A stretch of 64,000 nucleotides of DNA from Armatimonadota bacterium (GTDB lineage Bacteria; Armatimonadota; UBA5829; DSUL01). Under the pieces are notes generated by a model. That model was not told the DNA's origin and ran no database searches. It worked only from the letters and a program-made list of their open reading frames with translations. Below, piece by piece: positions 30,133-58,424 of this stretch. Location: the NCBI GenBank assembly GCA_040769165.1, contig JAXGLP010000001.1, positions 728,197-792,196 on the forward strand. Direction: 5' to 3'. The first letter of the stretch is position 1. Each line of letters begins with the position of its first letter. Made by a program: the position numbers and the translations under genes.

Positions 30133-32475
30133 ATGAGTTCTAAGGACATCGGGCGGGTGGTCAGAGTGGCGCGGCTGGCCGCCTTGCTGCTTGCCGTGCT
30201 GGCCGCGGCGTCCCCGGGCTTTGCCGCGGGGGGCGGGGGCATGGATCCCGGATATGTGCCGGGCGAACTCGTCATCAAGCTTCGCGCGGGTTTCGGACCC
30301 TCTGACGCGGCATCCGTCGCCGCCCTTGCCGGCGCGGTGGTGAAGAAACCCCTGCCGGTTGAGGGCTTCTACCTGCTGGCCGCGAAGGACACCGCAACCA
30401 CGGTCGTCCAGATGCGCGACGCCCTCCGCACCGACGCGCGCGTCTCCTCCAGCGACCCGAACTATCGTTGCAAGCTGTCGGCCGAGCCCAACGACCCCTA
30501 CTATGCGCAGCAGTGGAACCTCGTGCTTGTCAATATGCCCGAGGCGTGGGAGCCGATCCACATCCGCGATGCCAGCGGCATTCGCGTGGCCGTGGTGGAC
30601 GCCTGCGTGCGCACGGACCACCCCGATCTGGCCGGCCGGATCGTTGCCGGATATGACGTCGCGGACGATGATGAAGACACCAATCCGCCGGAAGAGGCGC
30701 GTCCGTGGAGTGAGCACGGAACGATGGTGGCGGGCATCATTGGGGCGGTTACCGACAACAGGATCGGAATTGCGGGAGTGTGCTGGGACGGGGTTCAGAT
30801 TGTCCCTGTCAAGGTTTACGAAGACAGCAACAATACAGTGTATGGCTCCGGCGACGACTTCGTCGCGGGCCTGGACGAAGCCCTCAAGCGCAACGCCAAC
30901 GTTGTCAACATGAGCATGGAGTTCGCCGTCACGTTCGACCTTCTTCGAGAGAAGATAGAGGAACTGGCCGACGCCGGGATTATCCTTGTCGCGGCTGCCG
31001 GCAACGGCTCAGGAAACGTCTCCTATCCGGCTGCCTATCCGGAGGTTATCTGCGTGTCGAGCGTCAACAGCGATAAGGAGATCTCCGAGTTCAGCAACCG
31101 GGGGCCCCAGGTTGATGTCGCCGCGCCGGGTGAGGACGTAACGTCGACGGGGGTAGATTCCACCGTCACGCCCATCGCCTATTACCTTACAGAGTCGGGC
31201 ACCTCGTTTGCCGCGCCGCATGTGGCGGGCGCCGCGGCCATCCTGCTTGCCAACGGGCGGCAGGCGTCTTCGGTCCTTGACGCCATTCAGGCGACCGCGC
31301 AGCAGCAGGGGACGGAGATACCCAACGACGAGTATGGCTACGGAATTCTCGACGTCGGTGCGGCTCTGCTGTATCAGTCGTTCAACGTGATCATTGACCG
31401 CCCGCAGAACGGCGACAGTCTTTCAACCACCTACCCGCCGGTTCGCATCAGCCTGAACGGAGTCGCCATCGGAACGGTGCAGGTTCTCGTGGACGGTGAG
31501 ACCGCCATTTCCGGCGGCCAGATAGCTAACGCCAAAGTCTCGCACTACAGCGCGCCCACGACAAGCGGGCAGTTGGCGTTTACCTGGCCCTTCACGACGG
31601 GCACGCACCGGATAAACGTGACGGCATCTCCCGTCTACAGCGCCACCGAGACAGTGACTGTCAGAAGCACGTTCACCGTCGCTCCCCGCACTCTGCCGCC
31701 GGGCATGTATATGTTCTCGCTGCCGTTCGCGACGGCGGGGTCGCAGACAGGGCTCGGGGACGTCCTGGCGGCCGCGGACGGGTCGCCCCTGTTTGTCTAT
31801 CGCCAGGCGCGCTGGGAACCCGAGGTTGCCGCTTACAAGCTTTACAACTATCCCGGAATCCCGAACCAGACAGGCGCGTCGTTGCAGCCTTCGAACGTGC
31901 GCGCGGGCGAGAACGCGCTTCCGGCGGAGGGCGTGGCCTCGACAACCCTGCCCAGAGGCGTCGGGTACTGGCTGGATCTCCGCCAGAGCGCTTCGCTCAT
32001 CAGCTCCACCTACGTGGATGACAGCAAGACCTATGCGATCGAACTGAAGCACGGCTGGAACCAGATCGGGAATCCCTTCCCGTTCCCGGTAGGCTGGGGT
32101 AGCGTTCTTGTGCGCTACCTCAATGATACCGTCTCCATCACGGAGGCTGTGTCGCGCGGCTGGGTCAGCTCTTCGCTCTATCGCTATGAGAGCGGCGCGT
32201 ATCGCGCGGATTCGGCGCCGAACGGGCTGCTGGAGCCGTGGAAGGGCTACTGGGTGTATGTGAAGGTTCCTCCCACCGGGGGCGCGCCGGCCGACCCGAA
32301 CGCCGCGACTGCGAAAGTGACGCTGTTTATTCCGCCCCTGCAGGGCGCTCTGGCCGGCGGCCTGCCGCTGACCCCCGCGGGCATCACCGGATCCGCCGCC
32401 TCCAATGCCGCCGGAAGCGCTTCCGGGGCGGTACGAGGCACTCTCGCGGCCGTAAAGGGCTCGTCCGGACGTTAG
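30133..32475 (+). CDS. Secreted S8 (subtilisin-like) serine peptidase with the bipartite 'GWNQIG...GYW' C-terminal module
   Basis: Signal peptide present. Catalytic triad contexts VAVVDACVRTDHPDL (D), HGTMVAGIIG (H) and GTSFAAPHVAGAAAIL (S). The C-terminal module at about 31697-32270 is shared with the next three CDS. Confidence 0.85.
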   Translation: MSSKDIGRVVRVARLAALLLAVLAAASPGFAAGGGGMDPGYVPGELVIKLRAGFGPSDAASVAALAGAVVKKPLPVEGFYLLAAKDTATTVVQMRDALRTDARVSSSDPNYRCKLSAEPNDPYYAQQWNLVLVNMPEAWEPIHIRDASGIRVAVVDACVRTDHPDLAGRIVAGYDVADDDEDTNPPEEARPWSEHGTMVAGIIGAVTDNRIGIAGVCWDGVQIVPVKVYEDSNNTVYGSGDDFVAGLDEALKRNANVVNMSMEFAVTFDLLREKIEELADAGIILVAAAGNGSGNVSYPAAYPEVICVSSVNSDKEISEFSNRGPQVDVAAPGEDVTSTGVDSTVTPIAYYLTESGTSFAAPHVAGAAAILLANGRQASSVLDAIQATAQQQGTEIPNDEYGYGILDVGAALLYQSFNVIIDRPQNGDSLSTTYPPVRISLNGVAIGTVQVLVDGETAISGGQIANAKVSHYSAPTTSGQLAFTWPFTTGTHRINVTASPVYSATETVTVRSTFTVAPRTLPPGMYMFSLPFATAGSQTGLGDVLAAADGSPLFVYRQARWEPEVAAYKLYNYPGIPNQTGASLQPSNVRAGENALPAEGVASTTLPRGVGYWLDLRQSASLISSTYVDDSKTYAIELKHGWNQIGNPFPFPVGWGSVLVRYLNDTVSITEAVSRGWVSSSLYRYESGAYRADSAPNGLLEPWKGYWVYVKVPPTGGAPADPNAATAKVTLFIPPLQGALAGGLPLTPAGITGSAASNAAGSASGAVRGTLAAVKGSSGR

Positions 32476-32626
32476 CTATGCGGAACAACGACATGAACTT
32501 GACGGTCAATGACATGGAAGCGAAAGCAGGCCGCCGCTGGCAGCCTCGCCCCGTGTCGTTGCCACTTTCGTGCGACGGGTCCCGGCCGTATAATCCGGGT
32601 CCGGTGCGCACTGGCGGGAGGGCACG

Positions 32627-34747
32627 ATGATTCCCTGTCCGCCAAACGGAGTGCTGAGCAGAATGACCATACCAACACCCGCCCGACCTGCAGCGCGGAT
32701 CTCTTTCGGAATCGCCATGGCTGTAGCTGCGCTGCTCTGTCTGCAGGCGCTTCCGGGAATGGCGGAATACACCTCAGTCGCCGTCTCGAACCCCTACATC
32801 AGAGTGGTCGCGGGGATTTCGGGAGATGCTGAGCTTGGCGACGCCCGCGGGGGCGGTTCGCCCGAGGTCGGCGGGAAGTTCGCTGTCGGCACCTCCGGTG
32901 GCGACCCTTCCAGTTCGCTCGACAACAACTCGGCGCTGCTTGCCGGGTCTGACGGGGAATCCGGCAGCTCACTGGTGCCCTTCGGGGGCTCAACGTACAT
33001 AGTGATAGATGAGGAGACCGTCATTCTTTACGGGGGAGAGGACGGAACGTGGACGAAGCCTCCGACCCTGGACCCCGTTACCAGGGTGATCACCGATTCG
33101 TTCACTCCCGAAGAGATTCCGATTACCATAAGCCGCACCCTCAAGCCCCTGCGCGACAACGTGCTGGTCAGCTTCCAGATCACAAGCGACGACCTGGTGG
33201 CCCATACGGTGGGTCTGGTTACAGTCCTCGATACCGAGTTTGGAGCCCTCGAAGCTCTTCCGGCAACCGGTGGGCCCTTCTATACGACTCTGACCGGAAG
33301 CGTCAGCTACGAGCGGGCGTTTCTGGGGGCTGATGTCCCGGACATTATCTATGCGGCTGACAGGCTCCCCGACTACAGGATCATCTCGCAGGCGCTCTTG
33401 CGCCGCTCGGACGTGACGACTCCCGATGTGGTTCAGCTTGTCTCTCTTGCCACCGCGACGGCCGACCCGTGGGGATGCGAGGCGGATCCCTCGGTGTCGC
33501 TGCTGACGGACAGCGCGATGGTGCTGAAGTGGAACGAGAAGGCTTTGCCCGCCGGGGGCAGACTGCTTCCCGTCTCTTTTTACTTCGGGCTGGGCAATGC
33601 GTGCGCCGAGTTCAGCTATCCGGCGGTGGCGGCGCTTCAGACGCCGTTCACGCTCAACTATGTGCGGGATATTGACGATGAGACGGGGCTTGTCGAGGAC
33701 ATCGGTCACATCGTTCCGGACCCGTTTGTTGTTTACGGTTACGTTTACAACCTGAGCCCCGAGGTCAGCCTCAGCGGCGTTCAGCTTCAGCTTACGCTGC
33801 CCGACGGGCTCGAGTTTGCGACGGGTGAGTCGGCGATCCGCTCCATCGGCGCCATTGCTCCTCTGGCGGAAGGCTCGGTCTCGTGGAAGGTGCGGGCGAC
33901 TGGCCTGAAGACAGGCCCTCTGCCGGTGACCATGTCGGCCGTCGGTTCGCCGATGACAGGCAAGGCGGTCACGCGCACGGTGGACATCCCCGCGACGGAG
34001 ACCTACAGGTTCCGGGGCGGTCTGGGGCGCTGGCAGATGGTCACCATTCCGTTCGAGACCGAGAGCACCGATCTTGCGACCGCGCTCGGGCTCACCACGG
34101 CGCAGTGCCCGCAGTCGTGGCTGGACAGCCCGCTCAATTTTGACGACTACGGCGGAGTTCTGAGTTACCACGCCTTCCGCTGGAACCCGGACGGCGGAGG
34201 TTTGAGCAAGTACGACCGCGTGACGACGGTGCCGTTGCCCGGGGCTGCATTCTGGTTCCGGGGGTGCGCCGACCTGGTGCTGACAATGCAGGGCGCGACG
34301 CCGCTGCTCGAGTCTGACCTGCAGACGCGGACCATTGCGCTTCGGCCCGGATGGAACCAGATCGGAAATCCCTGGCTCTACGGCGTGGCGTGGGGGCGCT
34401 TCCGGGTTCTGAAGGATCCGGCGGTCGGGAGCGTGGAGCTTAAGGAAGCGATTCGTCAGCGCTGGCTGAACGGAACGCTCTACTGGCTCAATGCCGAAAC
34501 CAACGACTACGATTTCAGTTCCGCCCAGAGCACGGTGCTGCAGCCGTGGGTGGGTTACTGGCTGCGTGCTTACGAGCCCGTAACGCTGATCGTGCCGAAC
34601 GTCGACACCATCGGCGGAGCGGGTGTGGACATCTCCGGCGGGACCGGGGGCGGAAACAACGGTGGAGGTGGAAACGGCGGCAACGACCCGCCGCTGCCGC
34701 CGCTGCCGCCGGTGCCGTGGAGCACCACTTCGATGATTACCGACTGA
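32627..34747 (+). CDS. Secreted hypothetical protein (706 aa) ending in the shared C-terminal module plus a Gly/Asn- and Pro-rich tail
   Basis: Signal-like FGIAMAVAALLCLQALPGMAE. Module at 34021-34600 (RPGWNQIGNPW...LQPWVGYWLRAYEP). Tail is GGTGGGNNGGGGNGGNDPPLPPLPPVPW. Confidence 0.6.
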   Translation: MIPCPPNGVLSRMTIPTPARPAARISFGIAMAVAALLCLQALPGMAEYTSVAVSNPYIRVVAGISGDAELGDARGGGSPEVGGKFAVGTSGGDPSSSLDNNSALLAGSDGESGSSLVPFGGSTYIVIDEETVILYGGEDGTWTKPPTLDPVTRVITDSFTPEEIPITISRTLKPLRDNVLVSFQITSDDLVAHTVGLVTVLDTEFGALEALPATGGPFYTTLTGSVSYERAFLGADVPDIIYAADRLPDYRIISQALLRRSDVTTPDVVQLVSLATATADPWGCEADPSVSLLTDSAMVLKWNEKALPAGGRLLPVSFYFGLGNACAEFSYPAVAALQTPFTLNYVRDIDDETGLVEDIGHIVPDPFVVYGYVYNLSPEVSLSGVQLQLTLPDGLEFATGESAIRSIGAIAPLAEGSVSWKVRATGLKTGPLPVTMSAVGSPMTGKAVTRTVDIPATETYRFRGGLGRWQMVTIPFETESTDLATALGLTTAQCPQSWLDSPLNFDDYGGVLSYHAFRWNPDGGGLSKYDRVTTVPLPGAAFWFRGCADLVLTMQGATPLLESDLQTRTIALRPGWNQIGNPWLYGVAWGRFRVLKDPAVGSVELKEAIRQRWLNGTLYWLNAETNDYDFSSAQSTVLQPWVGYWLRAYEPVTLIVPNVDTIGGAGVDISGGTGGGNNGGGGNGGNDPPLPPLPPVPWSTTSMITD

Positions 34748-34757
34748 TTTTTGTGAC

Positions 34758-34830
34758 GCGGGGCCGCCGGAGCGATGCCGGCCCCGCCCTTTGCGCCGGG
34801 AGCGCATCCGGCGCGGACGCGCGCTTTTTC
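34758..34830 (+). terminator. Cluster of GC-rich hairpins ending in a T5 run (likely terminator)
   Basis: Hairpins gcggggccg/cggccccgc (9 bp), gcgccgg/ccggcgc (7 bp) and gcgcg/cgcgc, followed by ttttt at 34825-34829. Confidence 0.5.
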
Positions 34831-34878
34831 GGCCGGGGCCGGGTTGGCCCGTAGAGGCCAGGGGAGTAGTGAACGGGT

Positions 34879-37800
34879 TTGGACAGTAGGACACCTGGAA
34901 CAGACAACCGAGGGGGGTTCGTGGGATTGAGACTGAGCTGGCGAACATCGGCCGGAAGCGTACTGCTTGCGCTCCTGGCGTTGCTGTGTACGGCTGGCGT
35001 TTCGCTGGCGCAGACTATCTCTCTCACCGACGGCAAGGTGACGCCGGCTTTCAGCGTGCGCGGGGCGGTTTACACCTACTCTGTAACCTACTCAGATGAG
35101 GACGCAACGCCGCCGATGTACGTGCGCGTCGTCATAGACGGCGAGACCTACACCATGCAGCGCTCTGCCGGCGCGCCCGACTATGCGGCGGGCGTTGTCT
35201 ACACCTACCAGCGCCGTCTCACCACCAGCGGCACACACCGCTATCATTTTGAAGCGCGCAATGCGTCGGGCTATGCGGTCTGGGATTTCCTCAGGTTCAG
35301 AGCCGGCGACGTGGAGGTGGAAGAGGAAGAAGACGAAGAGGGCAACGTCATCAGTTCCGTCGCCACAATCACCATCGCCGGCGAGGGGCCGTACCCGGAG
35401 TGTTACTCTGAGATAACCTGGGTCGGTGGCGACCGTGAGGGCATGGTGGACGCGGTCAACGCATCCGGGGATACGCTGACCATCGAGATTGAAGGCCCGT
35501 TTGAACCTGCGGCGCGGGGGGGTGACACGTTCGAACTCCCTTACTCGCGCAAATGCAGGTCGGCCTTTACCGTTGTCGGCGACTTCAGGGATCCCCTGGT
35601 CAACGACGCCCCGTTCCTGTCTGACCCGGTCGTCTCTCCGCGATGGAACTCGGATGGGTCGCAGGCGCACTGGACCTTCAAAATCACCTACAGCGACATC
35701 GAAGGAAACGGTCCGTCCTTCGTTCAGCTGTTCCTTGGCAGGGCGACGCTGATGGCGGCTAAGTCCGTGAGCGCAACCGAAACCGGCGCCGTCAGTCTGG
35801 CCTCCGCGCTGGGAAACAATCGGCTTCTGAACGTTGTGGGAGTCTATGATGACCCGGCGGGCGAAGGCGTCAACTACTATACGGGCGGCAGTTACAATCC
35901 GGAGACCGCGGTCGTCACGCTCGGCACGCCCCTGCCTGAGCCGAAGAGCGTGTACGTCACCTATCACGCCACGCCGATGACCTGGCAGGCGTACGATCTC
36001 ATCAAGGCCGATCCGCTCGCCTCAGGCTACACCGCCGGGGTGGAGTACGTCGTTCCCGCCCCGATTCCTCTCACCGGCTATAACACGCGGGCGCCGGGCC
36101 AGCCGCCTCATCTGTATTATTACTCTTTTGAGGCGGGTGACGGGCTTTACGACGACCGTAGGACTGGCTATCCGCTGTCGGTTGTGCCTGCACCGGCGAA
36201 GCAGCTTTTCGCGGCCGTTTCGGAGGTTCTCGGAACGCCAGGGGCTGAAGCGCCGTACCCGATGGTGTTCAACGGTCTCGGTGCCGGCTGGACTGAAACG
36301 ACGACCGGCCCGATATCCCGGATTGTCATGTCGGCCGCGTACGGGCCGCCGGAGGGCGCCGGGTTTGGTGTGCAGATCAGGACCATCTCAGCGTCGAACG
36401 AGGTCACCCCGGTTACGGACGCGAAAACGGATGACGCCCTGGGCCAGGTCACGCTGACAAGTGCGCCGGCGGCGGGCGATACGGTAACAGGCAGCTACGT
36501 TTTTGCCGAGCCTCTGCAGATGGCGCAATACGCCTCGCCGCCCGTCCTGGAGGATGGCACGGTCACCCCCGAGATCGGCGACCGCTCGGAAGCGTTCACC
36601 TACTGGGTTACCTACAAAGATGGGGCAGGCAGAGCTCCGGAATCGGTCACTGTGGTCATAGACGGTGTCGCGCGGGAGATGGCCCCGGCCGGGTCAGGCG
36701 CCCCGGACTACGCAAGCGGAGTTGTCTACCGCTACAGCACCATGCTCGCGCCCGAGACGGAGCATCAGTATCATTTCGAAGCGGTCAGCGCGGGCGGATA
36801 TGCCGTCTACGACGCGCTGCCGCTGGAGATCGTGTCGCTGCAGTACGACTACGCCGAGGACGGGGTTACCACAATCGCCACGTCACTGGCCCAGAACTGG
36901 TGGGACGAGGAGTTCGAAGGCAGCGAGATCACCTGGGTGACCGGACTCCGCGCCGGCGTCAGCGACCCTGTGGAGGGCGTCCGTGTCATAGACTACGACA
37001 GTATTACGCCAGCCGATGACCCGACCACGATCACCGTCACCGGCGTGCTCAACCGCGATCCGGAGAAAGAGCCGTTTCCTGGCGACCTGCTGACGCTGAA
37101 CCGGTCACGAAGCAGTCTCTGGCCCATCGCGGCAACGGGTGATATCGCGGGACCGTATGTCAACGACTCTCCCACTCTCACGAACTCGCAGGCCAGCCCG
37201 AGCACCAGCGTGCCGCTTCCGAACTCGGGGTGGACCTTCCAGACCACATACAGCGACATAGACAACAACGCGCCGCAGTTCGTGTACGCCATTCTGGGCC
37301 AGGCTACCGCCCGCTCTGCGCAGCCGTGCGCCGCTTCCAGCGTCAGCCAGGTGACTGTGGTTCCGCCCGACCCGGGCATTCCCGGCGAGGCCGCGCCGAA
37401 ACTGCTGAATGTCGTGGGAGTCTGGGACAACCCGAACGGCAGCGGAACCAACTACTACTCGGGCGGATCGTTCGACCCGGCCACGGGCGTGGTGACGCTC
37501 GGCACGAGTCTCGCTGCAGCCTCCACGGTCTACGTGACGTATCACTGCACCCCCATCGTGTGGGCGCCGGATGGCTCCGGCACGGGCCGGATAGCCCTCT
37601 CGAAGCTCGATCCGGGCGACATTGATTTCAGGGACGGCGCCATATTCACGACTTCCGCGCCTGTCTATTTCGATGGACCCGCGACCGGCAATATCGCGAA
37701 AGATCCGCCGAGGCTCAACTACTACTCTTTCGCTGCTTCAGACGGCTTCACTCGTGCAAAATATGCGCCCAACGACGCGCGCCCGTCTCCGGGCGCGTAC

Positions 37801-40800
37801 GGCGTCGAGATGGACATGCTGGTGACCGGCGATCAGCAGACCTACCGGATGACGTTCAACGGCTTCCCGCTCAGTTCGCGGCCTGACCCTGTCTCGCCCG
37901 TCCTGCTCGGCCCGTTGGCCGCGTCGGCCGCGGATGGTGACCTGGCGCTCGTCAACACCATCGTTACGCTGACGCCTGAAGGCGGCATGCCGCAGGTGCT
38001 GCCTCAGGGCGACTTCGCTTCGCGCATGGAGTACGAGTTGGACTATGCGCTCGGGACCGTGCGGCTCGGCGCCGCTCCTGAGCCGGGGGCTCCCGCGGAC
38101 CTCCTCCAGGCGAGCTACTGGTTCGCGCGGGCTTTGCCGATGGTGCAGTACAACAACCCGCCCGTCCTCACGTCGGGCAGGTTGGCGCCGGAGGTCGGCT
38201 CGCAGTTTACGACCTACACATACACGGTGACTTACACCGATACGGACGGCCTGAACGGCACGGCTCCGTCCTACGTTCGCGTTGTCATTGACGGGACGAC
38301 CTATTCTATGTCGCGCGTTTCGTCGGGTGTACCGATCTACCGCAATGGCGTGGAGTACCGCTACCAGACAAAGCTGGCTCCCAATACCTCCCACCGGTAC
38401 TACTTCGAGGCGAGCGACGGCTACGGGTACGCGCTCTTCCATGCGCCGTCCATCCCTGTGTCTCAGATCTCGTTCGATGCCGCCGCTGGAACAACGCTGG
38501 TGTCTGCCACCGGGCAGAGCTGGAAAGCATCGGAACACAAGAACGGCACGGTCGCCTGGGTCACCGGCAAGCGGGCCGGCAAGTACGACACCATTCTCGA
38601 CAATGCCGCCTCGACGCTCACCGTCGGTGGGCTGCTGAACGCGGATGCCGCAGTGCAGCCCGTTGTTGGCGACCAGTTCAAGGTTACGAAGTCAGAAAGC
38701 AGCCTGACCGCCTTTACCGCTCCCGGAGCCATTGACGGTCCGTTCATCAACGACGCGCCGTACCTCACCGATGGCACCGTCGTTGCCGTCGGGGCCATCA
38801 AGCGCGGTGACCCTGTTTCCTACACCGTGTCGTATCACGACAGCGACAACGACGCCCCGGCGGACGGCTACCCGATGGCCTGGGTCGGCGGCACGAACTG
38901 GGAGTTCAACGGCGGTGTCACGTCGCGCCTTTACGGTGATGTCACGCTCATCACCGACGACAGCCAGGCGTGGACGCCCTCGCAGTTCAAGGATCAGCCG
39001 CTTACGTGGATTACGGGCAAGCGCGTTGGCATCACCGACACGATCCTCGACAACACGTCGAATATGCTGATCATCAGCGGCCGGCTCGACGCGAGCATCA
39101 CGGCCCGGCCGGAGGTCAGTGACCGCTTCAGCATCCTGCAGGCGACCGGAACCGCGTCGGCCATAGACTACCGGGCCGCGGCATTTGTGGATGACACCAA
39201 AGCGTTCGTGCCGGACGCGCTCGCTGGCGAGCGCATCCAGATGGTTACCGGGTCTGGCCTCGGAGCGGTCTTCGATGTCGCCGCAAACACGGCTGAGATG
39301 CTCGTGATATCTGGACGGCAGCTTCCCACATCGTCTGCTGATCCCGCTGTCGCGGCCACGGGCGTGGCGAGCGGCGATTCGTATTCGATCCACGACTTTC
39401 TCGTCGGCGCGATTACGCTGAACGTAAACGACGGCGGCCTGGTCTCGATGAAGTTCAACAACTCGCCGGGCTGGGTCACCGACCAGTTCGCCGGGCTTGT
39501 CATCCAGATGATGAGCGGTACGGCGGTCTGGAAGAAATATACCATCCTCAACAACACCGCCGACACGCTGTACTTCTCCCAGCAGGCGAGCGTCTTCGTC
39601 AACGACGGTGTGGCGACTGGCGACGTTGTGCGCATTGCCGGTCTCAAGATGGACAAGCAAAGCCCGGGTGAGAACGATTTCACCGTCGCGCCCGGAGTGT
39701 ACTACACGGTCACCATTCCGGGGCTTGGGCTCGGCGATCACACGGTCAAATGGATGGCCTCCAACAGCCCGCTGGTGCGCGGCGTCCGAACCACCTTCCA
39801 GGGCCGGTATCCTGCCGGGGCCTCCCTCCCCGGTCCGCTCGTGACCGGTGACATACCGCCCGGCAACACCGCCCCGCAGCTTAGAAACGCGGTTGCCTCG
39901 CCGGCGATCGGTCTCACGACCAGCAACTACCGCTTCTCGGTTGACTACCGGGACGCCGACGGCGACCCGCCGGGTCCGCACGACGGAGTGGTCGGATTCC
40001 TGCAGCTAGTGGTGGATGCCGAGATCAATGGCCAGATCGTTCGCCGGACATACCGCTCTTCGGTTGACCCGGTGAGCGGCGGCGCCTGGCCCGTCAACAT
40101 CTATCGCACGATTGACTCCACTGTCTTCAGCGGCTTCCTGCTCGATGCCAGCGTGGCGCAGCTTCCGCCGGGCACGCACAGGTTCCATTTCGAGGCGTCG
40201 GACGGCTGGTCCGTGGTTCGCTACCCGTCGAACGCCGCCGACGACCCGATGGTGGTTGTCAACAGCCGGCCAACGCTCACGATTCCCGCCGCTGGCGGGG
40301 TGAGTCCGGGCGAAGGAAACACCGGCACGACATTCCGCTTCCGCGTCATCTATGCGGACGGTGATAACCAGGCGCCCGCCTCCATCAGCCTCGTGCTGGC
40401 GAAGGGCGGCGTGCCTCAGGCGCCGCTGATCCTGTCGCAGGAGGTTCCGTCGGACGGGAACTACCTGGATGGCGCGGTCTACTACGTGGACACCACGCTG
40501 CCGGCGGGAACGTACACTTATTACTTCTCGGCGAGTGATGGGGTGGAGCTGTACCCGGTCGTGACGCAGTCCCAGCCCGGCCCGATAGTCCGCGGCGAGA
40601 ACAACGCTCCGGTCCTTCTTGAAGCAGCGGTGACTCCCGCTGTCTCACCGTTTGCCGGAAACGAGTTCAACTACACCGTCCGCTACAGGGACCAGGACAA
40701 CGATCCTCCGAACCACGTGAGCCTTACTGTCTATGCAGCGGACCAGACCACGGTTCTGGACACGCTGGCCATGGAGAAGGCTGATCCGGACGACACGGCT

Positions 40801-43062: not shown

Positions 43063-43196
43063 TAACAGAACACGGTTGGTCTGCCCGCGGTTCGCAGAGA
43101 GCCGTGGGCAGGCAGTCTTCAGGTTGCCGGCCGGGCCGGTTACGAGTCTGGAGTTACGTAAGATTGAGCGATATTCATAAGAAGAACAGAAGAGCC

Positions 43197-46100
43197 ATGA
43201 ACCTGCTGAGCCGACTGAGGGGGCAACTGGTTGCCGCGTCTGGTCTGAGAGCCGCGCTGCCGGGTCTCGCCGCCGCGCTGGCGTGCGCCGTTCTGGCAGG
43301 GCCGGTCTCGGCTCAGTCGCTGTCTGGTCCGGGCGTCACGCCGGGTAAGGCGACCACAAACTCAATCTACAACCACACCGTGACCTGGACGTGGACCCCC
43401 TCCAACAACCATTTCCCGTGGTATGCCAATGTGGTCACCCTGGGTCCCGAAGAGGTGACGCGGGTCTATTCCGACGCCGCGCGCACGCAGCTTGTCACCG
43501 ACCAGGTGGACATTAAGATACCCGTGACATGGTTCGGCGTGGACCGGTTCTACGAGATCTGGGCCGCAAACGGCGAGAACTACCCACCGACCGCTGACCG
43601 GGTCAATGCGGGTTACCGCCCGGGCGGTAACCGCGTCCGCGTGACCCTTCCGGTGGACGAAGAAGGCAATACGATCAACCCTGTCACCGCGACCGGCGAA
43701 CTGACAGCACGGGTCCGCCTTGGCGCCTTCCGCGCGGTTGAGCGCAATGTCCCGGTTGACCCCGACGGCGACGGGCAGACGTTCTTCACCCGCGGGGCGC
43801 CGATTGTCGCGGTGGGCGGCGTGTTCGACGAAAACGGCGTGGATTACTGGGAGACCCAGGACCAGTACGGCAACCCCACAGGCGGTCTGGGCTCTGTCGT
43901 CAGCGGCGCGGGCTATCCATTCCGCTGCGGCCTCAGGCTGCCATCGCCTCTTCCCAGCCGCGTCAAGACCGTGACCCTCATCTACTATGTCGGGCCGGTG
44001 ACGCTCGGCAACATCGGTGGCGGCTTCGATGATGACGACGGAAACTACGTGCCGCTGGCGGCCGCATGGGACGGCGACAAGCCGCCGCAGGACGGCTCGA
44101 GGTTTCTCCTCTCCGCGTCGAGGGGACTCAATCTGCTCAACGACCCGCGCGCTGTGCCTGGAGTAAACCGTGTGACAGGGCCGGGGGCGACCCAGCACTG
44201 GGCCACCCGTTTCATCAAGCGCGACAGCAACGGCCGTCCCGAGCGGATAACCAGCAATACCGATGACGACGTCATACGTTACGGCGCGTATATGAAGGTG
44301 GAAGGGAGCGACACTGAGCCGGCGCAGCCGGGCGACCTGGATACGGAGTCGTTCCCGTCAACACCGCCGCTCGTGGGCGCCAATGCGGCCGTCATCAGCC
44401 CCAATCTGTTCGGGCCTTACAACTACCCAAGCGTAATCCAGAAGGTGGGTCCCACCGGCTCGACTATCATCAAGGTCTCGCCTCCTGGCGGCGGATATCT
44501 CGTGGATGTTCGCGGAGTGTGGGCCGATTCGGACGCGGACGATGACGGCGTGGCCGATCTGACCGGTCCGAACTACTACAGCGGCGGCACGTTCGATACC
44601 GCGACGAACATCATTACGCTCGGCACGGCGCTTCCGTCCTCGGTTCAGAATGTCTGGGTGGACTACGCGTACTCGAGCAGGTACTACCGCTTCGGTGATG
44701 CAGGCGAGGAAGATGACACTTCCATCTGGGGCCATGACGCGCTCGGGGCGTACCCGGCGGTTGCGTTCGTCAACCGCGCCAAGGTGTACAACCCCCTCGT
44801 GGCGGAGCAGTATATCCGCGATTACTACTGGCGCATAGACCCCGTCTCGGGCGACCTGGTTGTGAACCCTTCCGCAAGGAAGATGATCAAGATCACCGAC
44901 GACGCCGCGTTCATAGATGCCAGCGGCACGACACCGGCGGACGAACGGCTCTTCACGCCCTTCAAGCAGAACGCTCCGAACGATGGCAACAGCTCTCACT
45001 CGTTCAACTTCAGGGTCCGCTACTACAACGACCAGGGCCTTGGAGCCAGCAACTGGCTGCCGAGAGCCGATGGGCGCCCGGGCGCATCTGGCGTGATGGT
45101 GTACGTGAAGTACGATGGCGAGAACGACTTCCGGCCCTACGGCATGGCCCAGGAGAACCCGGCGGTCAACAACGTTGCGCGCGATGACAACAGCTATCCG
45201 GGCGACTACGGACTGGGATATCTCCTCAGGTTTGAACCGAATTTCGGGCTGAGCGGTATTGTCGTGGCTGGCAAGAAGAACTACCCCACGCCGACGTGGA
45301 CGCTGCCCAACAACTACATCTCGATGCCCGTGGGCCGACATCAGTACTTCTTCGCCACAAGCGATGACTCGCTGAAAGACTGGGACGGCGCCCTCTGGCG
45401 GAATCCGCAGGTGAAGGTCAGGGCCGAGAATCCCCTGAACCCCTACGATGTTCCCTGGTGGACCCAGCAGAACCCGCCCGCCTACCGTCCCGGCGAGCTG
45501 CCCTTCGGCTTTGGTGACGGCTTCATAGACAGTAATATGCGCGACACCTACAACTTCGCGGATATCACAACCTACCAGCCGGGACTGCTGAATACGGGCT
45601 ACGAGTACGAAGCGACCGAGCATCCGGTCGTGCACGCGCTGCTGTCGGGCATTCCGTTCGGGCAGGATGCCCTGGGACATGTCGGTTCGGGGTTCTTCCT
45701 CGGAACGCTCTCCCCGTATGTGCCGGCCGTGAATCCGCGGCAGCCGCCCGTGCCTACCGGAATGTCTGCCGGGTTCAACCTTGCGGGTGCCTGGCAGACA
45801 ACGTCCATGGGCACTGCGTCCACCTTATTCACCTTCAAGGTGATCTGGCAGTCGTTCGACCCCGACACAAAGGTGGGCCGCCCGCCGAAGTACATCAAGG
45901 TTTTCGTCAACAACAAGTCCACCGCCAAGCCGACGCTGGACACGGACAATACGACGGTTGACCCCGCCGCGAAGTACACCGGCTACACGATGGTGCCGGT
46001 CAAGGCCAACCCGACGGCCGCCGACTACGCGGCCGGCCTCACCTATCAGTATCAGACCACGCTGCCGCCGGGCCCGCATACGTACTACTTCGAGGCCGAT

Positions 46101-49100
46101 GCCGGGTTCGGCGCCGTGCGCTTCCCGGTGCGTCCCGACGGACGCCGGCTGGACGCGCCGCCTGAGGACGGCGGCCACGGCTGGTGGGAAGATCCATATG
46201 TGCCGGGCGAGCGCGACTTTGCGGACAACAACGACTACTGCCCGGGGCCGTACGTCAACAACAAGCCGCAGCTCCTGAGCCCGAGCGTCACGCCGTCGAG
46301 CGGGCCTTACGGGACCGACTTCGTTTACAGGGTCATCTACCAGGATCCCGACGGCCAGCGGCCGGTGCAGACCGACATCATCATCGAGCTGGCTCCGGGC
46401 CAGACCGTGCGCGCCACCATGCAGCGCGTGGAGCCCGATCCGGCGAACGTGGACTACGCCGAGGGCGAGGCCTATATCTTCCGGGCGTCCTCCCTCCAGG
46501 GCTCGGTGTTCGCGCCCGGAATCAGGCGCTATCGCTTCGAGTTCCGCGACGACTGGGGCCACCCGCGCATAGATACCGATACCATCCCGGGTGAGCTCGT
46601 GAGTGCGCCGGCGGCGGTCAACAATGTCACCGCATGGTATGAGGGGCCGACTGTTTCCGCTCAGGCGCGGCCGCTGCTGACCGCCGGGGCGGTGTCGTCT
46701 TCGGACGGCTCGTCGAACCCGGCGACTCTGTGGACCTACCAGGTCACGTACACGCACGGCAACAACATCGCGCCGAGCTTCGTCAACGTCTATACAGGCG
46801 CTCAGCGCGATGCCGCCGACCCGCTGAATGCGCGCACGCTGGAACGCGCCAGGCCGTCGTCGGCCAGGAGCCTGCAAGTCGCCGTGACTCCGGTTACGTC
46901 GGTCACCGGCGTCTGGACCAACGCCGCGGGAGGTGGCGTCAACTACTACACCGGCGGCAGCTTCAACCCGAGCACCGGCGTTATCACGCTGGGCGCTGCT
47001 CTGCCCGAGCCGAGCCGCGACGTCTGGGTGACCTACTCGGCTAACCCCATCGTGTGGGATGACGGACACGGGATGGCCAGGCGCGACGCCGCCGATATCA
47101 TCTACACCGACGGCGCGGTCTATCAGTATCAGACCACGTTGCCCGGTCCGCAGCGAACGGGCGACCTGCCGATTACGTACTACTTCACGTATCAGGCGTC
47201 TGACGGGCGGCTGATGACCCATTACGATGCTGCTTCGTCGGCGTCGGCGTTCGCGCTGACCCGCCAGCCCGCCGGAGAGGGCGCCACCGATACGGGTGAG
47301 ATTCTGAGCCACGCGACGAGCCAGAACTACACGGTGTATCAAGCCGAGCACTTCCCGATCGTGGGGCCGCTGCCGACGACAGCGACGAGCGATCCGGGCG
47401 TGCTCCTGCAGCCTATCATCTACAAGAACGATCTGCAGCTTATGCCCGGTTTCACCGGAACGCTGGACTCTGCTTATGTTGAGGACAACGTCAGGGTGGA
47501 CGCCAACGGCCTGAGCGTGACCGTTGACCCGTCCGTGGTTCACATGGTGCTCGGCGTATATACCGATGCTCTCATGATGGGCACGGATTACTACGCCGGC
47601 GGCGCCGGGGGCAAGTACAACAGCGAGTCGGGCGTCATCGCTCTGGGCACGCAGCTTCCCGCGGGAGTCCGCCGCGTGTATCTGAGCTACTCCAACCGGG
47701 GCGAGTATCGCGTGGACTTCGTGAATGGCAAGGTGATCTTCACCGAGCCGAACGATGCCAGTGACGTGCTCGAGATGGAGTACTGGTGGGCCGCCAAAGG
47801 CCCCGCCAGCGTCGGCCTGAACAACCCGCCGTCGCTGTCGCTGGGGCGCTGGACGGCGCTGCCGCTGGACACCGTCCCCAACGACGGGGTGGACGGGTCG
47901 AGCACGACGGAATTCACGTTCTCGGTCGTGTATCGCGATGTGGATGGACAGGGCGGGCAGGCGCCATCGTTCGTGAACATCATCATTGATGGCGTTGTGC
48001 ACCCGATGACGCTCAGCACGAGCAATCCGGTCTACTCGACGGGCGCGACATTCAGCTACACGACGAAGCTGTCGAGCGGATCGCATCTGTACTACTTCGA
48101 GGCGTCGGACGGCACGGGCTTCGCGGCTTACGATGCTGACGGGTCGAAGAGTTCGGCCGCCGAGATCACGGGCCTGGTGCCGATCGTCGGGCCGTTTGTC
48201 AACGACCGGCCCGTTCTGTCGAGCGGCGCTGTCTCACCCAACCCCGTGGACGGCATCGCGGCAGGAAGCTCGGCGACCTACGCTGTGACGTACACCGATG
48301 CTGACGGCAACCCGCCGAACGTGGGCTACCCGAAGGTCTGGATAGACAATCCGACCGAGGTGGACTACTCGGGCAAGGTAACGGCTGTCAACGGGTCCAC
48401 GCTCACCATCGGCGGAGCGGACTGGGCGCCCGGAGTACTGACAGGCAAGCTGCTTCAGGTGACGACCGGACTGGTGATTGACCCCGAGACGCAGACGCTT
48501 GGCAGCCCGAGCGCGGCTTCCGGCAGAATCTATCAGGTGCTGGACAGTGGGCGGAACACGCTGGTTGTGACGCCCACCGAACTGCCGGGCGAGACGATTA
48601 TCCTGGGAGACACGATCTCGGTCACCGGGCTGGTGATGAGCAAGCAGAACCCGCAGCAGACGGACTACCGGCAGCCGGTTCCGTACCAACTCGTCGTTCC
48701 GTCCATGCCTGTGGGCACTCACGAATACCACTTCAGCGTTGTCTCTGCGCCGACAGTGGAGGTTGTGACGCTCAGGGCCGGGAGCGCCGAGTTCGCCGGG
48801 CCGCTCGTCACAAGCACGCCGCCAGACGGTAACGTGGCCCCGGTGCTCGCGGCCGGCTCGGTCACGCCGGACAGAGGCGTCTCGAACACCGCCTTCACGT
48901 TCGAAGTTGCCTATTCGGATGCCGATGACGATCCGCCGGGCGCGCACGACGGCGTGTTCGGATATGTCAGGCTCGTGTTCAACGACGGCAGCTATCCGGC
49001 GCAGAGAATGCAGCCCGTGGGCGCGGTCAACTCGTGGATCAGCCCCGTCGTTTACCGGGTTGTTCTCGACGACCTTCCGGCGGGAACTCATCTGTTCCAC

Positions 49101-50663
49101 TTCGAGGCGTCCGACGGATACCGCGCCGTGCGCTATCCCGAGACAACAGCCTACGACACGGCGGTTGTCATCAACTCCGCGCCCTCACTGGCGTCGGGGA
49201 CGGTCTCGCCCCCGAACGGGACTCCGGACACCGACTTCACCTGGAGCGTCGTTTACATAGACGCCGACAACCAGGCCCCTGCCTTCATGAGAGTGCTGAT
49301 TGACGGCACGGCGCACGATATGGCGAAGATTACCGCCGGGAGCAACTACGCGTCGGGCGTGACCTACCGGTGGACGCAGAACCTGCCGCTCGGCACGCAT
49401 AACTTCCTGTTCCAGGCAAGCGACGGGCAGCCGGGCGAGCCGGTTGTGCAGTCGACGCTTCAGAGCGGCCCCATCGTTCAGGATGTCGCAGGGCCGGAAC
49501 TGACGGACGGGGCGGTTTCGCCGACGCAGGGCGCTGCGAATGAGCAGTTTGTTTACAGCGTCTGGTATCGCGACCCGAACAACCGCCAGCCAGCGAGCAT
49601 CTCCGTCTTCATTGACGGAAGCGCAACCGGACGCGCTCTGTTTGCCACGGGTGTCCCGGACGCCCAGGGGCGGCAGCGTTACGAATCGGCGCCGGTGTCG
49701 CTTGGCGGCGGCTCGCACACATTCTACTTCGAGGCATCGAACGGCCTCGCGACCAGCCGCCTGGGTTCGCCGTCCAACCCGCTGGTTGGGCCGTCGGTCT
49801 CTGGCGCCAGCCTGGTGCTGAACGTGTCGAGCGACAGCTACAAGCTCGGACAGACCATCTCGGTGACGGGCTCGCTCGCTCCCGCCAGCTTGAGCCCGGC
49901 CGCGATCATCATTACCCTGAACACGCCGGACGTGAACCGGCCCGTGATTCAGAAGACCGTGACGACGTCGGCCGACGGAACGTTTGCGGCGGACGTTGCC
50001 GCGGCGGACTATACCGGCACCTGGACTATCCGGGCGGCCTGGAACGGCGGCTCCGGGTTCCCGGCGCAGGAGACGGCGCTGACGTCCATAGATGTCGGCG
50101 GCTTCGTGTTCCGCCTGAACGCGGGTGTCGTGGACATGGTGACGCTCACGCTGATTCCGTCGAGCGCCGACCCGGCGGTTGTCTTCGGCGACGCAGCGAC
50201 GGCGGCGAACGTTCAGATGGCCGAGTGGAGTCCGAACCTGGCTGAATACCTGTTCTATCCCGCCCGCGCTCCCCGCGCTGCCGCGCAACTCTGGGGTGGG
50301 GCCGGGTTCTGGGTCAAGCCGCTCGTGACGCAGGATGTCGAGGTCAGCGGGCAGTTGGCTTCCCAGACCTCGGCCTATCGGGTACCGCTGAGCGCTGGCT
50401 GGAACCAGGTCGGCTCGGTGTTCGTGAAACCGATACAGATCGGTGCTATGCAGGTCGTATATCAGGGTCAGACAAGGACGCTGGCGGATGCCGCGCGGCA
50501 GGGATGGATCCGGGACTACGCCTGGGGCTTCGACCCGGCGGCGGCAAATCCCGGGGACTACTACTTCCTGGTGATGGCCGGCACGAACCGGACGACGTTC
50601 GATCCGGGCCGGGGTTACTGGATCAGGGCGCTTGTCGACTGCGACCTGGTGCTCGTTCCGTAG
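43197..50663 (+). CDS. Giant secreted repeat protein, paralog of the preceding CDS (about 2488 aa), with the shared C-terminal module
   Basis: ATG at 43197 gives the signal peptide ...LAAALACAVLAGPVSAQ. Same three repeat classes as 34879..43062. Shared module at 50126-50660 (SAGWNQVGSVF...GRGYWIRAL). Confidence 0.75.
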   Translation: MNLLSRLRGQLVAASGLRAALPGLAAALACAVLAGPVSAQSLSGPGVTPGKATTNSIYNHTVTWTWTPSNNHFPWYANVVTLGPEEVTRVYSDAARTQLVTDQVDIKIPVTWFGVDRFYEIWAANGENYPPTADRVNAGYRPGGNRVRVTLPVDEEGNTINPVTATGELTARVRLGAFRAVERNVPVDPDGDGQTFFTRGAPIVAVGGVFDENGVDYWETQDQYGNPTGGLGSVVSGAGYPFRCGLRLPSPLPSRVKTVTLIYYVGPVTLGNIGGGFDDDDGNYVPLAAAWDGDKPPQDGSRFLLSASRGLNLLNDPRAVPGVNRVTGPGATQHWATRFIKRDSNGRPERITSNTDDDVIRYGAYMKVEGSDTEPAQPGDLDTESFPSTPPLVGANAAVISPNLFGPYNYPSVIQKVGPTGSTIIKVSPPGGGYLVDVRGVWADSDADDDGVADLTGPNYYSGGTFDTATNIITLGTALPSSVQNVWVDYAYSSRYYRFGDAGEEDDTSIWGHDALGAYPAVAFVNRAKVYNPLVAEQYIRDYYWRIDPVSGDLVVNPSARKMIKITDDAAFIDASGTTPADERLFTPFKQNAPNDGNSSHSFNFRVRYYNDQGLGASNWLPRADGRPGASGVMVYVKYDGENDFRPYGMAQENPAVNNVARDDNSYPGDYGLGYLLRFEPNFGLSGIVVAGKKNYPTPTWTLPNNYISMPVGRHQYFFATSDDSLKDWDGALWRNPQVKVRAENPLNPYDVPWWTQQNPPAYRPGELPFGFGDGFIDSNMRDTYNFADITTYQPGLLNTGYEYEATEHPVVHALLSGIPFGQDALGHVGSGFFLGTLSPYVPAVNPRQPPVPTGMSAGFNLAGAWQTTSMGTASTLFTFKVIWQSFDPDTKVGRPPKYIKVFVNNKSTAKPTLDTDNTTVDPAAKYTGYTMVPVKANPTAADYAAGLTYQYQTTLPPGPHTYYFEADAGFGAVRFPVRPDGRRLDAPPEDGGHGWWEDPYVPGERDFADNNDYCPGPYVNNKPQLLSPSVTPSSGPYGTDFVYRVIYQDPDGQRPVQTDIIIELAPGQTVRATMQRVEPDPANVDYAEGEAYIFRASSLQGSVFAPGIRRYRFEFRDDWGHPRIDTDTIPGELVSAPAAVNNVTAWYEGPTVSAQARPLLTAGAVSSSDGSSNPATLWTYQVTYTHGNNIAPSFVNVYTGAQRDAADPLNARTLERARPSSARSLQVAVTPVTSVTGVWTNAAGGGVNYYTGGSFNPSTGVITLGAALPEPSRDVWVTYSANPIVWDDGHGMARRDAADIIYTDGAVYQYQTTLPGPQRTGDLPITYYFTYQASDGRLMTHYDAASSASAFALTRQPAGEGATDTGEILSHATSQNYTVYQAEHFPIVGPLPTTATSDPGVLLQPIIYKNDLQLMPGFTGTLDSAYVEDNVRVDANGLSVTVDPSVVHMVLGVYTDALMMGTDYYAGGAGGKYNSESGVIALGTQLPAGVRRVYLSYSNRGEYRVDFVNGKVIFTEPNDASDVLEMEYWWAAKGPASVGLNNPPSLSLGRWTALPLDTVPNDGVDGSSTTEFTFSVVYRDVDGQGGQAPSFVNIIIDGVVHPMTLSTSNPVYSTGATFSYTTKLSSGSHLYYFEASDGTGFAAYDADGSKSSAAEITGLVPIVGPFVNDRPVLSSGAVSPNPVDGIAAGSSATYAVTYTDADGNPPNVGYPKVWIDNPTEVDYSGKVTAVNGSTLTIGGADWAPGVLTGKLLQVTTGLVIDPETQTLGSPSAASGRIYQVLDSGRNTLVVTPTELPGETIILGDTISVTGLVMSKQNPQQTDYRQPVPYQLVVPSMPVGTHEYHFSVVSAPTVEVVTLRAGSAEFAGPLVTSTPPDGNVAPVLAAGSVTPDRGVSNTAFTFEVAYSDADDDPPGAHDGVFGYVRLVFNDGSYPAQRMQPVGAVNSWISPVVYRVVLDDLPAGTHLFHFEASDGYRAVRYPETTAYDTAVVINSAPSLASGTVSPPNGTPDTDFTWSVVYIDADNQAPAFMRVLIDGTAHDMAKITAGSNYASGVTYRWTQNLPLGTHNFLFQASDGQPGEPVVQSTLQSGPIVQDVAGPELTDGAVSPTQGAANEQFVYSVWYRDPNNRQPASISVFIDGSATGRALFATGVPDAQGRQRYESAPVSLGGGSHTFYFEASNGLATSRLGSPSNPLVGPSVSGASLVLNVSSDSYKLGQTISVTGSLAPASLSPAAIIITLNTPDVNRPVIQKTVTTSADGTFAADVAAADYTGTWTIRAAWNGGSGFPAQETALTSIDVGGFVFRLNAGVVDMVTLTLIPSSADPAVVFGDAATAANVQMAEWSPNLAEYLFYPARAPRAAAQLWGGAGFWVKPLVTQDVEVSGQLASQTSAYRVPLSAGWNQVGSVFVKPIQIGAMQVVYQGQTRTLADAARQGWIRDYAWGFDPAAANPGDYYFLVMAGTNRTTFDPGRGYWIRALVDCDLVLVP

Positions 50664-50766: not shown

Positions 50767-51645
50767 TTGATGAGATGTAACGTTTTGCCGCGCATCGCGC
50801 TTCTGGTGGCGGGCGCGTATTTGATCAATCTTGCAGCGCCAGCCGCTGCGCAGACCGCCGCGCCTGCGCCGGAGGCCGCCAAGGCTCCGGCCGAGGCGAA
50901 GGCCGCCCCCGGCGCTGCCGAGGCGGGGTACACCGGCCCGCGCATCAGCCTGCTGGTGTTCCCGTTCGATACTTCGGAAGTGCAGGGCGCGCCTGAGGGG
51001 CTGGGCGAGAGCCTGGCCAAGATGTTCAAGGACGGCACCCTGCGAAGCACCATCTTCACCGGCGTGACGTTCAACCCGAAGTTCCCGGTGTTGCGCCGGG
51101 CGCTCGATGAGACGACACTTTCGGCTGCCGACCTGAAGGAGCCGTTCACGCTCGATCCGCGCGACACCGAGCGCGCCGCCAAGATCGGCCGCGTTATGGA
51201 TATGCCGGTGGCTCTGGGAGCGCTCCAGGACTTCAACTACGACCGCGAGAAGAAAGAAGCGACGGTCACGATCACGGCCGAGATTATCAACAGCCAGACC
51301 GGGCGCATCGACAAGACCCTTGTCGCAAGCGGCAAGACTCCGGCCTCGATGGTCGTCGGCACCGAAACGGACTATCTCCTGCGGGCGGCGGAACTGGCCG
51401 GGCAGGATCTGCTCGCGAAGATTCCGGGCGTGGAGCCGACGCTTGTCGTGAAGCCGGGTGAGAACGGCAAGACTGCGACGGATGAGGGCGAGAAGCCCGT
51501 GGTTGTTGAGCCCGTCAAGAAGAAGAGCAACTCCGGCCTGTGGGCGGCGCTTGCCGTGCTGGCTGGCATCATCATCGCTGGAAGCGGCGGTGGCGGTGGT
51601 GGGGGCGGAACCACCACGGTCGGGCCACCGGCTCCTCCTTACTAG
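50767..51645 (+). CDS. Membrane-anchored LpoB/CsgG-like envelope protein, short paralog of CDS 28155..29981
   Basis: Signal peptide ...[25 protein letters not shown] pattern. C-terminal anchor [31 protein letters not shown] parallels KKKKGIGQVLGVLAGLALVAIIAGQG. Confidence 0.55.
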
Positions 51646-51763
51646 AGAGGCAGCCTGCACGAATCAGCTTCTGGGCGGCGGCGCCGGATTCCGGCAGCCG
51701 CCGCTTTTTCGTGTCACGCCGCCGCTGTTGGGCATTGGATATACTGCTTCGCAGAGTACATCC

Positions 51764-53839
<2,076 letters not shown>

Positions 53840-58336: not shown

Positions 58337-58365
58337 TTGACCTGCATCGCGCCGAAGATTACTAT
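58337..58365 (+). promoter_or_regulatory. Putative sigma70-type promoter (TTGACC-17 bp-TACTAT) for CDS 58425..61556
   Basis: Spacing counted directly, in the divergent intergenic region. GAAGGAG ribosome-binding site precedes the ATG at 58425. Confidence 0.45.
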
Positions 58366-58424
58366 TGTACCTGCCCTCCCGCACACTGTTCAGGGAGGAA
58401 CTCTGCACGAGCGAAGGAGTCACG

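Follow-up and report, generated by a model that had tools for sequence, protein, structure and literature searches.

A duplicated C-terminal module shared by the secreted proteins of an Armatimonadota operon belongs to a widespread, unnamed domain family

The locus and its shared module

The window analysed here is a 64,000-nucleotide stretch of the genome of an Armatimonadota bacterium (GTDB lineage Bacteria; Armatimonadota; UBA5829; DSUL01; NCBI GenBank assembly GCA_040769165.1, contig JAXGLP010000001.1, positions 728,197 to 792,196 of the forward strand). It contains a block of six consecutive genes on the + strand (28155-51645), namely up608, an S8 peptidase gene, p706, Giant 1 (G1), Giant 2 (G2) and orf292, flanked by housekeeping genes (polA, the ribosomal protein S1 gene and coaE upstream, uvrB downstream). 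The four middle genes encode secreted proteins that each carry, at or close to the C-terminus, one copy of the same module of 180-218 residues (aa), hereafter M. The window has a guanine-plus-cytosine content of about 64-65% and is collinear with contig JBPOJE010000025 of Armatimonadota MAG_6077, with 89% nucleotide identity.

A six-frame scan of the 64-kb window with a hidden Markov model (HMM) of M found exactly four copies (E 1e-72 to 1e-79), the next best match having an E-value of 0.57. All are on the + strand and each lies in the frame of a long open reading frame (ORF). Copy 1 occupies residues 518-735 of the S8 peptidase (31684-32337; unit 1 at 31684-32028, unit 2 at 32029-32337; HMM E 6e-72) and carries two insertions, one of 30 aa within unit 1 and one of 15 aa ahead of its last strand. 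Copy 2 covers residues 462-658 of p706 (34010-34600; unit 1 at 34010-34324, unit 2 at 34325-34600; HMM E 3e-76), copy 3 residues 2546-2725 of G1 (42514-43053; unit 1 at 42514-42768, unit 2 at 42769-43053) and copy 4 residues 2336-2519 of G2 (50109-50660; unit 1 at 50109-50372, unit 2 at 50373-50660; HMM E 2e-79). The copies are homologous: BLASTP connects S8 with G1 (E 1e-16) and p706 with G2 (E 1e-8), the four-way alignment has 21 invariant columns, and all four match a profile built from 34 diverse members of the family (E 1e-44 to 1e-55).

A preliminary description of the window, made from the letters alone, had proposed that the same C-terminal module ends four consecutive secreted proteins, and the HMM scan, the BLASTP matches and the invariant columns bear this out. 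The four copies that it located are real, but its positions were 1-2 nt out of frame, and it ended the S8 copy too early, missing the last strand that follows the 15-aa insertion (VTLFIPP, to 32337). It also placed the module at the extreme C-terminus of the two giants and ahead of low-complexity tails in the S8 peptidase and p706, and the translations agree. Only 2 residues follow the module in G1, which ends ...DCDLLIQPPAK, and in G2, which ends ...DCDLVLVP, the module runs to the stop codon; the tails of the S8 peptidase (45 aa) and p706 (48 aa) are of low complexity and have no hydrophobic helix. The module had been called bipartite: it does have two parts, but these are the products of a tandem duplication of a single unit (see below).

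In the descriptions that follow, signal peptides and transmembrane helices were read by eye from the sequence rather than with a dedicated predictor. The S8 peptidase gene (30133-32475, + strand) encodes a thermitase-like subtilase of 780 aa, in which a signal-peptide-like N-terminus is followed by a fervidolysin-type N-propeptide, the catalytic domain, an Ig-like spacer, the module and the 45-aa tail, rich in Ala, Gly and Ser. The catalytic domain (residues 148-404) matches Peptidase_S8 (PF00082) with an E-value of 6e-48, Pfam also returns a Fervidolysin_NPro-like match, the best PDB sequence match is thermitase (1thm, E 1e-41), and the Asp/His/Ser triad motifs VVDA, HGT and GTSFAAP can be read in the translation. 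Judged by its sequence, with a subtilase catalytic domain and the triad motifs, this first protein is a member of the Peptidase S8 family.

The p706 gene (32627-34747, + strand; 706 aa) encodes a signal-peptide-like N-terminus, an all-beta N-region, the module and the 48-aa tail, rich in Gly, Asn and Pro. G1 (34879-43062, + strand; 2727 aa, start codon uncertain) consists of a signal-peptide-like N-terminus, at least 14 repeats of about 100 aa, an Ig-like domain that CarboxypepD_reg matches below the threshold, and the module. G2 (43104-50663, + strand; 2519 aa) is a paralogue of G1 and has a signal-peptide-like N-terminus, at least 10 copies of the G1-type repeat, and the module as its last residues. 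None of these three proteins has a significant Pfam, NCBIfam or PDB sequence match. The N-region of p706 gave no usable indication of function: its AlphaFold2 model is poor (7 sequences, mean predicted local distance difference test, pLDDT, 53.5), and its Foldseek matches are generic multi-Ig or macroglobulin-like structures with template modelling (TM) scores of 0.25 or less. The repeat of the giants (G1 34879-42500, G2 43104-50100) can be written ...TQFTYTV.Y.D..G..P..V.V.IDG....M......Y.....L..G.H.F.F.A.DG; it too has no Pfam or NCBIfam model and no PDB sequence match.

The genes at either end of the block encode proteins that do not carry the module. The product of up608 (28155-29981, + strand; 608 aa) has a hydrophobic N-terminus, an alpha/beta N-domain starting VAVLDF, then a cluster of lysines with a hydrophobic helix after it (residues ~318-340), and a C-terminal fn3-like region, the topology being read from the sequence; its family matches are limited to sub-threshold MreC-barrel hits. 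The product of orf292 (50767-51645, + strand; 292 aa) has a signal-peptide-like N-terminus, an N-domain starting ISLLVFPF, a KKK motif after it, then a hydrophobic helix and a Gly-rich C-terminus, and no family match was found for it. The two proteins are alike in layout: hydrophobic N-terminus, VAVLDF/LLVFPF N-domain, Lys cluster, hydrophobic helix and a Gly/Ser-rich stretch, which in orf292 is the very C-terminus. Both N-domains look alpha/beta and may recall LpoB/CsgG-type domains, a reading of our own that has no HMM support.

Elsewhere in the window, a GH106 enzyme and the product of a 1063-aa ORF (58365-61556), for which no Pfam match was found, have signal-peptide-like N-termini and no module. 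Terminator and promoter scans of the locus were uninformative, and hairpins between p706 and G1 (34748-34878) were discarded as a candidate structured element, their fold being no better than that of shuffled sequence (z 0.69).

Anatomy and predicted fold of the module

Comparison of the profiles of its two halves, obtained by dividing 134 members, indicates that the module is a tandem duplication of a unit of about 88 aa (hhalign probability 97.4%, E 1.2e-11). The ancestral unit has the form GWNx[IL][SG]xP, a short helix, W.P, Y..Y and L.PG.GYW[VIL]. It is still visible in three relatives (P0002, P0172 and P0173) that have kept GWN in both halves; in the subfamily of the window, unit 1 has degenerated to G..M.S.P. 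Across the 134 modules the most conserved positions are G91-W92-N93, A122 and G160-Y161-W162, together with P13, G58 and W62: G91, A122 and G160 never vary, and conservation exceeds 93% at W92, N93 and Y161.

An AlphaFold2 model of the G1 copy, built on an alignment of 34 sequences, is beta-rich and confident (pLDDT 95.2, predicted TM score 0.90), and both of its halves show the same order of strands with one short helix. A Foldseek search with this model against 350,542 PDB chains gave no significant match (best E 0.18, TM score never above 0.27), and PDB sequence searches with either module profile returned insignificant matches only, with E-values of 0.38 or worse. On the strength of the model, the module is predicted to be a beta domain without a solved relative, a missing Foldseek match being no proof of a new fold.

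The sole structural neighbour (E 5.5e-7, query TM score 0.68) was a predicted structure of 587 aa, BFVD entry A0A8D9C8P8, which bears the label "putative hemin binding protein [uncultured marine phage]". This protein is probably another member of the family, and its source is possibly a bacterial contig that was binned as viral.

A lone conserved Cys, unpaired in this extracellular domain, is found in the last strand of the module (HMM column 169) in 82 of the 134 modules (61%), and 61 modules have no other Cys. In the window it is present at residue 2718 of G1 (~43030-43032) and at residue ~2513 of G2 (~50640-50642), its place being taken by Val in the S8 peptidase and p706.

Size and distribution of the family

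Because word-index homologue searches proved insensitive for the module (3 and 82 matches, all of 382 aa or less), we searched 1.84 billion cluster representatives exhaustively with the HMM, family clusters being counted at 50% identity. This search returned 6,872 representatives at E<=1e-3, of which 2,380 and 75 remained at cut-offs of E<=1e-10 and E<=1e-30. Pfam-A gave no match to the 34 diverse modules, even at E<=10, no NCBIfam model matches the module, and literature searches (with the motif string, Armatimonadota together with a type IX secretion system (T9SS), and FlgD Ig-like sorting) found no description of it. The names that relatives bear in the databases ("hypothetical", "Ig-like domain-containing", "SBBP repeat-containing", transthyretin-like) are uninformative. 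The sequence searches thus place the module in a large, widespread family that has no name in Pfam or NCBIfam. The four window copies share the features by which we define this GWN...GYW double-repeat family, two units near the C-terminus of a secreted protein.

The taxonomic spread was taken from a pattern scan of one genome per species, which yielded 74 loci, is biased towards GWNQ[IV]G-type members, and was counted by group from record titles. About 27 loci belong to Armatimonadota (Chthonomonadales, Fimbriimonadales, Armatimonadia, Capsulimonadaceae and Fervidibacter) and about 19 to Bacteroidota/Rhodothermota; Ignavibacteriota have 4 and Chloroflexota 2, and single loci occur in Latescibacterota, Eisenbacteria, Krumholzibacteriota, Fibrobacterota, Calditrichota, Acidobacteriota and others. 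The family extends to Archaea: short proteins of Methanosarcinaceae and Woesearchaeota have two clean units at the extreme C-terminus, in some cases after a cohesin domain.

Position in proteins and partner domains

The position of the module is strongly biased towards the C-terminus, as expected from the preliminary description. In the 153 best relatives, the residues that follow the last module number 10 or fewer in 57 proteins, 10-60 in 13, 60-120 in 5, 120-200 in 27, 200-240 in 4, 240-300 in 47 and more than 300 in none, while the sequence ahead of the first module is as long as 4,579 residues, the median being 504. The module is therefore the true C-terminus in about 40% of the relatives, and about 60% have further domains after it. 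The number of copies per protein is strictly one or two.

The domains that follow fall into a small set. Almost always the module is accompanied in relatives by a domain of about 160 aa, which we call X (for example at L016:8426-11320, L006:8567-11308 and residues 572-744 of P0010) and which has motifs such as N.LG....A.DG.D..D.PKPP and VTLSWPDLS.LP. X has no Pfam or NCBIfam match. The idea that it is a diverged module unit was rejected, with an hhalign probability below 1%. A third domain, F, is a FlgD_ig domain above the Pfam threshold (up to 47 bits) that also gives sub-threshold TIGR04183 matches. In Bacteroidota/Rhodothermota the last domain is a bona fide type A C-terminal domain (CTD) of the T9SS, with profile matches to 9whd_A (5.5e-7), PorU (5.4e-5) and 8glj_D (2e-4). 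The resulting architectures are M alone, M-X, M-X-F, M-X-M (43 of the 153) and, more rarely, X-M and M-F; CTD/FlgD_ig and M share proteins in Bacteroidota, Ignavibacteriota, Armatimonadota and other groups. The tail of about 265 aa that X and FlgD_ig form in relatives has no counterpart anywhere in the window.

Upstream of the module the passengers are diverse, including S8 and M6-like peptidases, BNR, Ig-like, cohesin and SBBP domains; in P0172, P0176 and P0178 a cohesin domain is followed by a C-terminal module. Diversity of this sort is typical of modules with an accessory or anchoring role, not of catalytic modules.

A conserved operon in Armatimonadota

As a rule, the module genes of Armatimonadota form clusters, two to four in a row. 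Searching related loci by phmmer with the window proteins revealed that such clusters, with up608 and orf292 homologues on their flanks, are found repeatedly across classes of the phylum. A homologue of up608 is found in 14 loci, directly upstream of the S8 and module genes. An S8 peptidase with the module is present in 10 loci and a p706-like protein with the module, beside the S8 gene, in 12-16 Armatimonadota loci; the giants are present in some lineages only. Directly downstream of the last module gene, 8 loci have a homologue of orf292 and 12 more a member of the related L016_357 family. The association of the module with an S8 peptidase, which the preliminary description had noted in a single locus, is thus a recurrent property of a conserved operon. 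The conserved neighbourhood suggests that up608 and orf292 belong to the same system.

In 6 loci a clostripain-like C11 peptidase follows the up608 homologue; the window has no such gene. The Peptidase_C11 gene lies between the up608 homologue and the S8 gene at L016:3673-5058, with homologues in L012, L015, L017, L026 and L028.

The distant locus L016 has the operon again, followed by uvrB-uvrC as in the window (51458-53839 in the window, 14537-18523 in L016), and the locus is therefore old within the phylum. A surface-protein operon directly upstream of uvrB is an unexpectedly stable neighbourhood for envelope genes.

The S8 and p706 orthologues of other Armatimonadota end in M-X-FlgD_ig, whereas in the lineage of the window (the window itself, L002 and L003) they have M only, followed by short low-complexity tails or by nothing. 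That the module has been kept where X and the CTD-like domain are absent indicates that it has a function of its own.

Discussion

As a domain family M is new and unnamed, but its general kind is familiar; its nearest functional analogues may be the GW modules, the SLH domains and the "choice-of-anchor" domains. Like the GW modules of Listeria InlB and Ami (SH3b-like, Pfam GW/SH3_8), M is made of tandem units of about 80-90 aa with a conserved Gly-Trp and is placed C-terminally on unrelated surface proteins. GW modules attach their proteins non-covalently to the envelope by binding lipoteichoic acid, which is a component of Gram-positive envelopes. However, M has neither an HMM match nor a Foldseek match to SH3b/GW structures, and its host is an Armatimonadota bacterium; the two can be compared in how they may work and in nothing else. 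Anchoring scaffoldins, in which cohesins are followed by SLH domains, offer a second parallel: like SLH on these proteins, and like the NCBIfam "choice-of-anchor" domains of Haft, M stands just before or at the position of a C-terminal anchor, and the combination of cohesin and M parallels that of cohesin and SLH. This analogy is architectural only: in sequence, M matches neither SLH nor any of the choice-of-anchor models of NCBIfam.

The T9SS type A CTD (Por_Secre_tail, TIGR04183/PF18962) and FlgD_ig resemble M in being shared by many unrelated secreted proteins. The T9SS CTD is an Ig-like beta-sandwich of about 70-100 aa with which the cargo protein ends. M, in contrast, is separate from it, lies about 160 aa upstream of it, is twice as long and is internally duplicated. 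HMMs of the T9SS CTDs (PF18962/TIGR04183 and CHU_C, PF13585) found nothing on the four window proteins (E<=0.1) or on the 34 modules (E<=10), Foldseek gave no match of the module to CTD structures, and the window proteins have M and no CTD. No T9SS component was found among the window products scanned against Pfam and NCBIfam, which represent part of the window ORFs.

Other anchors fit no better. The layout of PEP-CTERM, LPXTG, GlyGly-CTERM and PGF-CTERM signals, in which a short motif precedes a hydrophobic helix and a basic cluster at the extreme C-terminus, is absent, as there is no C-terminal hydrophobic helix and no match to an NCBIfam sorting signal, and for SLH, LysM, GW/SH3b, CWB2 and choline-binding repeats the module has neither a Pfam match nor a fold match. 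The HMM and fold comparisons therefore uphold the earlier view of a non-catalytic module unlike the named anchors (T9SS CTD, PEP-CTERM, SLH, LysM). M also resembles PPC (PF04151) and the SD1/SD2 domains of fervidolysin, in that it is a non-catalytic C-terminal beta domain on a secreted S8 peptidase; it has no match to the PPC HMM, however, and is common to non-protease products of the same operon. No C-terminal domain of a subtilase appeared among the 50 PDB matches listed for the module, none of which was significant.

One apparent relative was set aside. Residues 694-735 of RemZ, a T9SS cargo protein of Flavobacterium (PDB 8gl8_D), weakly resemble the module at the level of a motif, Y.YD..G.W......P.GY.VRA, but the match (E 0.38) was not reproduced with a Bacteroidota-specific profile and we ascribe it to chance. 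The motif lies in the passenger region, which is not visible in the structure, where only the CTD is resolved (PMC10994853).

What, then, does the module do? The preliminary description had expected sorting, anchoring or co-assembly. The part of this that concerns a terminal sorting signal does not stand in general, because about 60% of the relatives have X with a FlgD_ig or T9SS-type CTD, or a second M, downstream of the module, so that M is most often the last element but one; where a genuine sorting domain is present, it is thus a separate one. Anchoring or co-assembly is the best reading of what is left, from the architectures and the gene context. We infer that M is an envelope-proximal retention or co-assembly domain of surface proteins because (i) its passengers are diverse, (ii) its position near the C-terminus or near the CTD is fixed, (iii) it is combined with cohesin domains, and (iv) it is shared by every secreted product of the operon. 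We hold this reading tentatively, at a probability of about 0.42. The module would then form the envelope-proximal base of secreted multidomain surface proteins, its two beta-rich units of about 88 aa packing into one compact extracellular fold. As a common handle it could hold the S8 peptidase, p706, G1 and G2 non-covalently at the same envelope site, which would keep the protease together with its probable partners or substrates. The likeliest binding partners would be a shared envelope component or the putatively membrane-anchored products of up608 and orf292 at the ends of the operon.

Other points weigh against this reading. The aromatic residues and Asn that are conserved might just as well bind glycans of an external substrate, and the role of up608 and orf292 is drawn from their conserved adjacency. 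The pattern scan, whose patterns are narrow, found one locus per genome in the closest relatives. A different proposal is that M is a carbohydrate- or ligand-binding module, resembling a carbohydrate-binding module (CBM) or lectin, that aims its passengers at an external substrate and not at the envelope of the cell itself. Its best-conserved residues, aromatics and Asn/Gln (GWNQ, W, Y, Y, GYW), are of the sort that many glycan-binding sites have, yet these aromatics may simply be core residues. The passengers include the glycoside-hydrolase-associated Glucodextran_B, BNR and NPCBM_assoc domains, and glycoside hydrolases (GH106 and a GH14/42-like gene) are plentiful in the surrounding genome; in the operon itself, however, the module is on all the genes, the giants and p706 having no catalytic domain at all. 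CBMs also vary in their position, unlike M with its restriction to the last ~300 residues, and no similarity to a CBM was found by HMM or fold (the best, the CBM6 1gmm, has an E-value of 1.1 and a TM score of 0.18). We regard a role in binding external substrates as unlikely, if worth keeping in mind.

The module might instead serve passively in the structure, as a stalk, spacer or folding nucleus with no specific binding partner, given that it sits among Ig-like beta domains and that strings such as M-X-M and M-X-F resemble other structural repeats. Against this speak its specific motifs, which are very highly conserved between phyla and between domains of life, the restriction to one or two copies at a fixed position next to the C-terminus, and the retention of M in the window lineage after the loss of X and F; a purely structural role seems distinctly unlikely to us. 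Alternatively, M might itself direct secretion or sorting, or be a propeptide at the C-terminus, read by a dedicated machine for export or processing and maybe removed by the co-encoded S8 peptidase, in the manner of T9SS CTDs or PPC domains. The extreme C-terminal position in both giants and in 57 of the 153 relatives would suit such a signal, and so would the encoding of a protease in the conserved operon, joined in some relatives by the C11 peptidase. But besides the domains that follow M in most relatives, the size of the module (175-218 aa, with a duplicated architecture) exceeds that of known C-terminal signals, the closest relatives have a single locus per genome in the pattern scan, and the GH106 enzyme and the 1063-aa protein of the window have signal-peptide-like N-termini and lack M. 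A signal or propeptide is accordingly very improbable.

The reading of M as a retention or co-assembly domain can be taken further. M may be a beta fold new to the PDB that forms, together with up608, orf292 and the S8 peptidase, an unrecognised retention and assembly system conserved across Armatimonadota. More widely, M-X may serve T9SS-type cargo in general as an undescribed "pre-CTD" adaptor, both in Bacteroidota and in allied phyla, archaeal surface proteins having simpler forms of two units. In this extended form the proposal is speculative, and we think it doubtful.

Shared C-terminal domains of unrelated secreted proteins led to most of the known sorting and anchoring systems (LPXTG/sortase, T9SS CTD, PEP-CTERM, SLH). 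The family of M has thousands of members in several bacterial phyla and some archaea, with a confident predicted fold and no solved relative, and a family model for it would annotate thousands of C-terminal regions now called "hypothetical". In Armatimonadota, whose cell-envelope biology is to our knowledge almost unstudied, M marks a conserved operon. The partner of M, once defined, would explain how proteases and giant adhesin-like proteins are displayed, and a region that recurs immediately upstream of the T9SS CTD in Bacteroidota cargo would be annotated as well.

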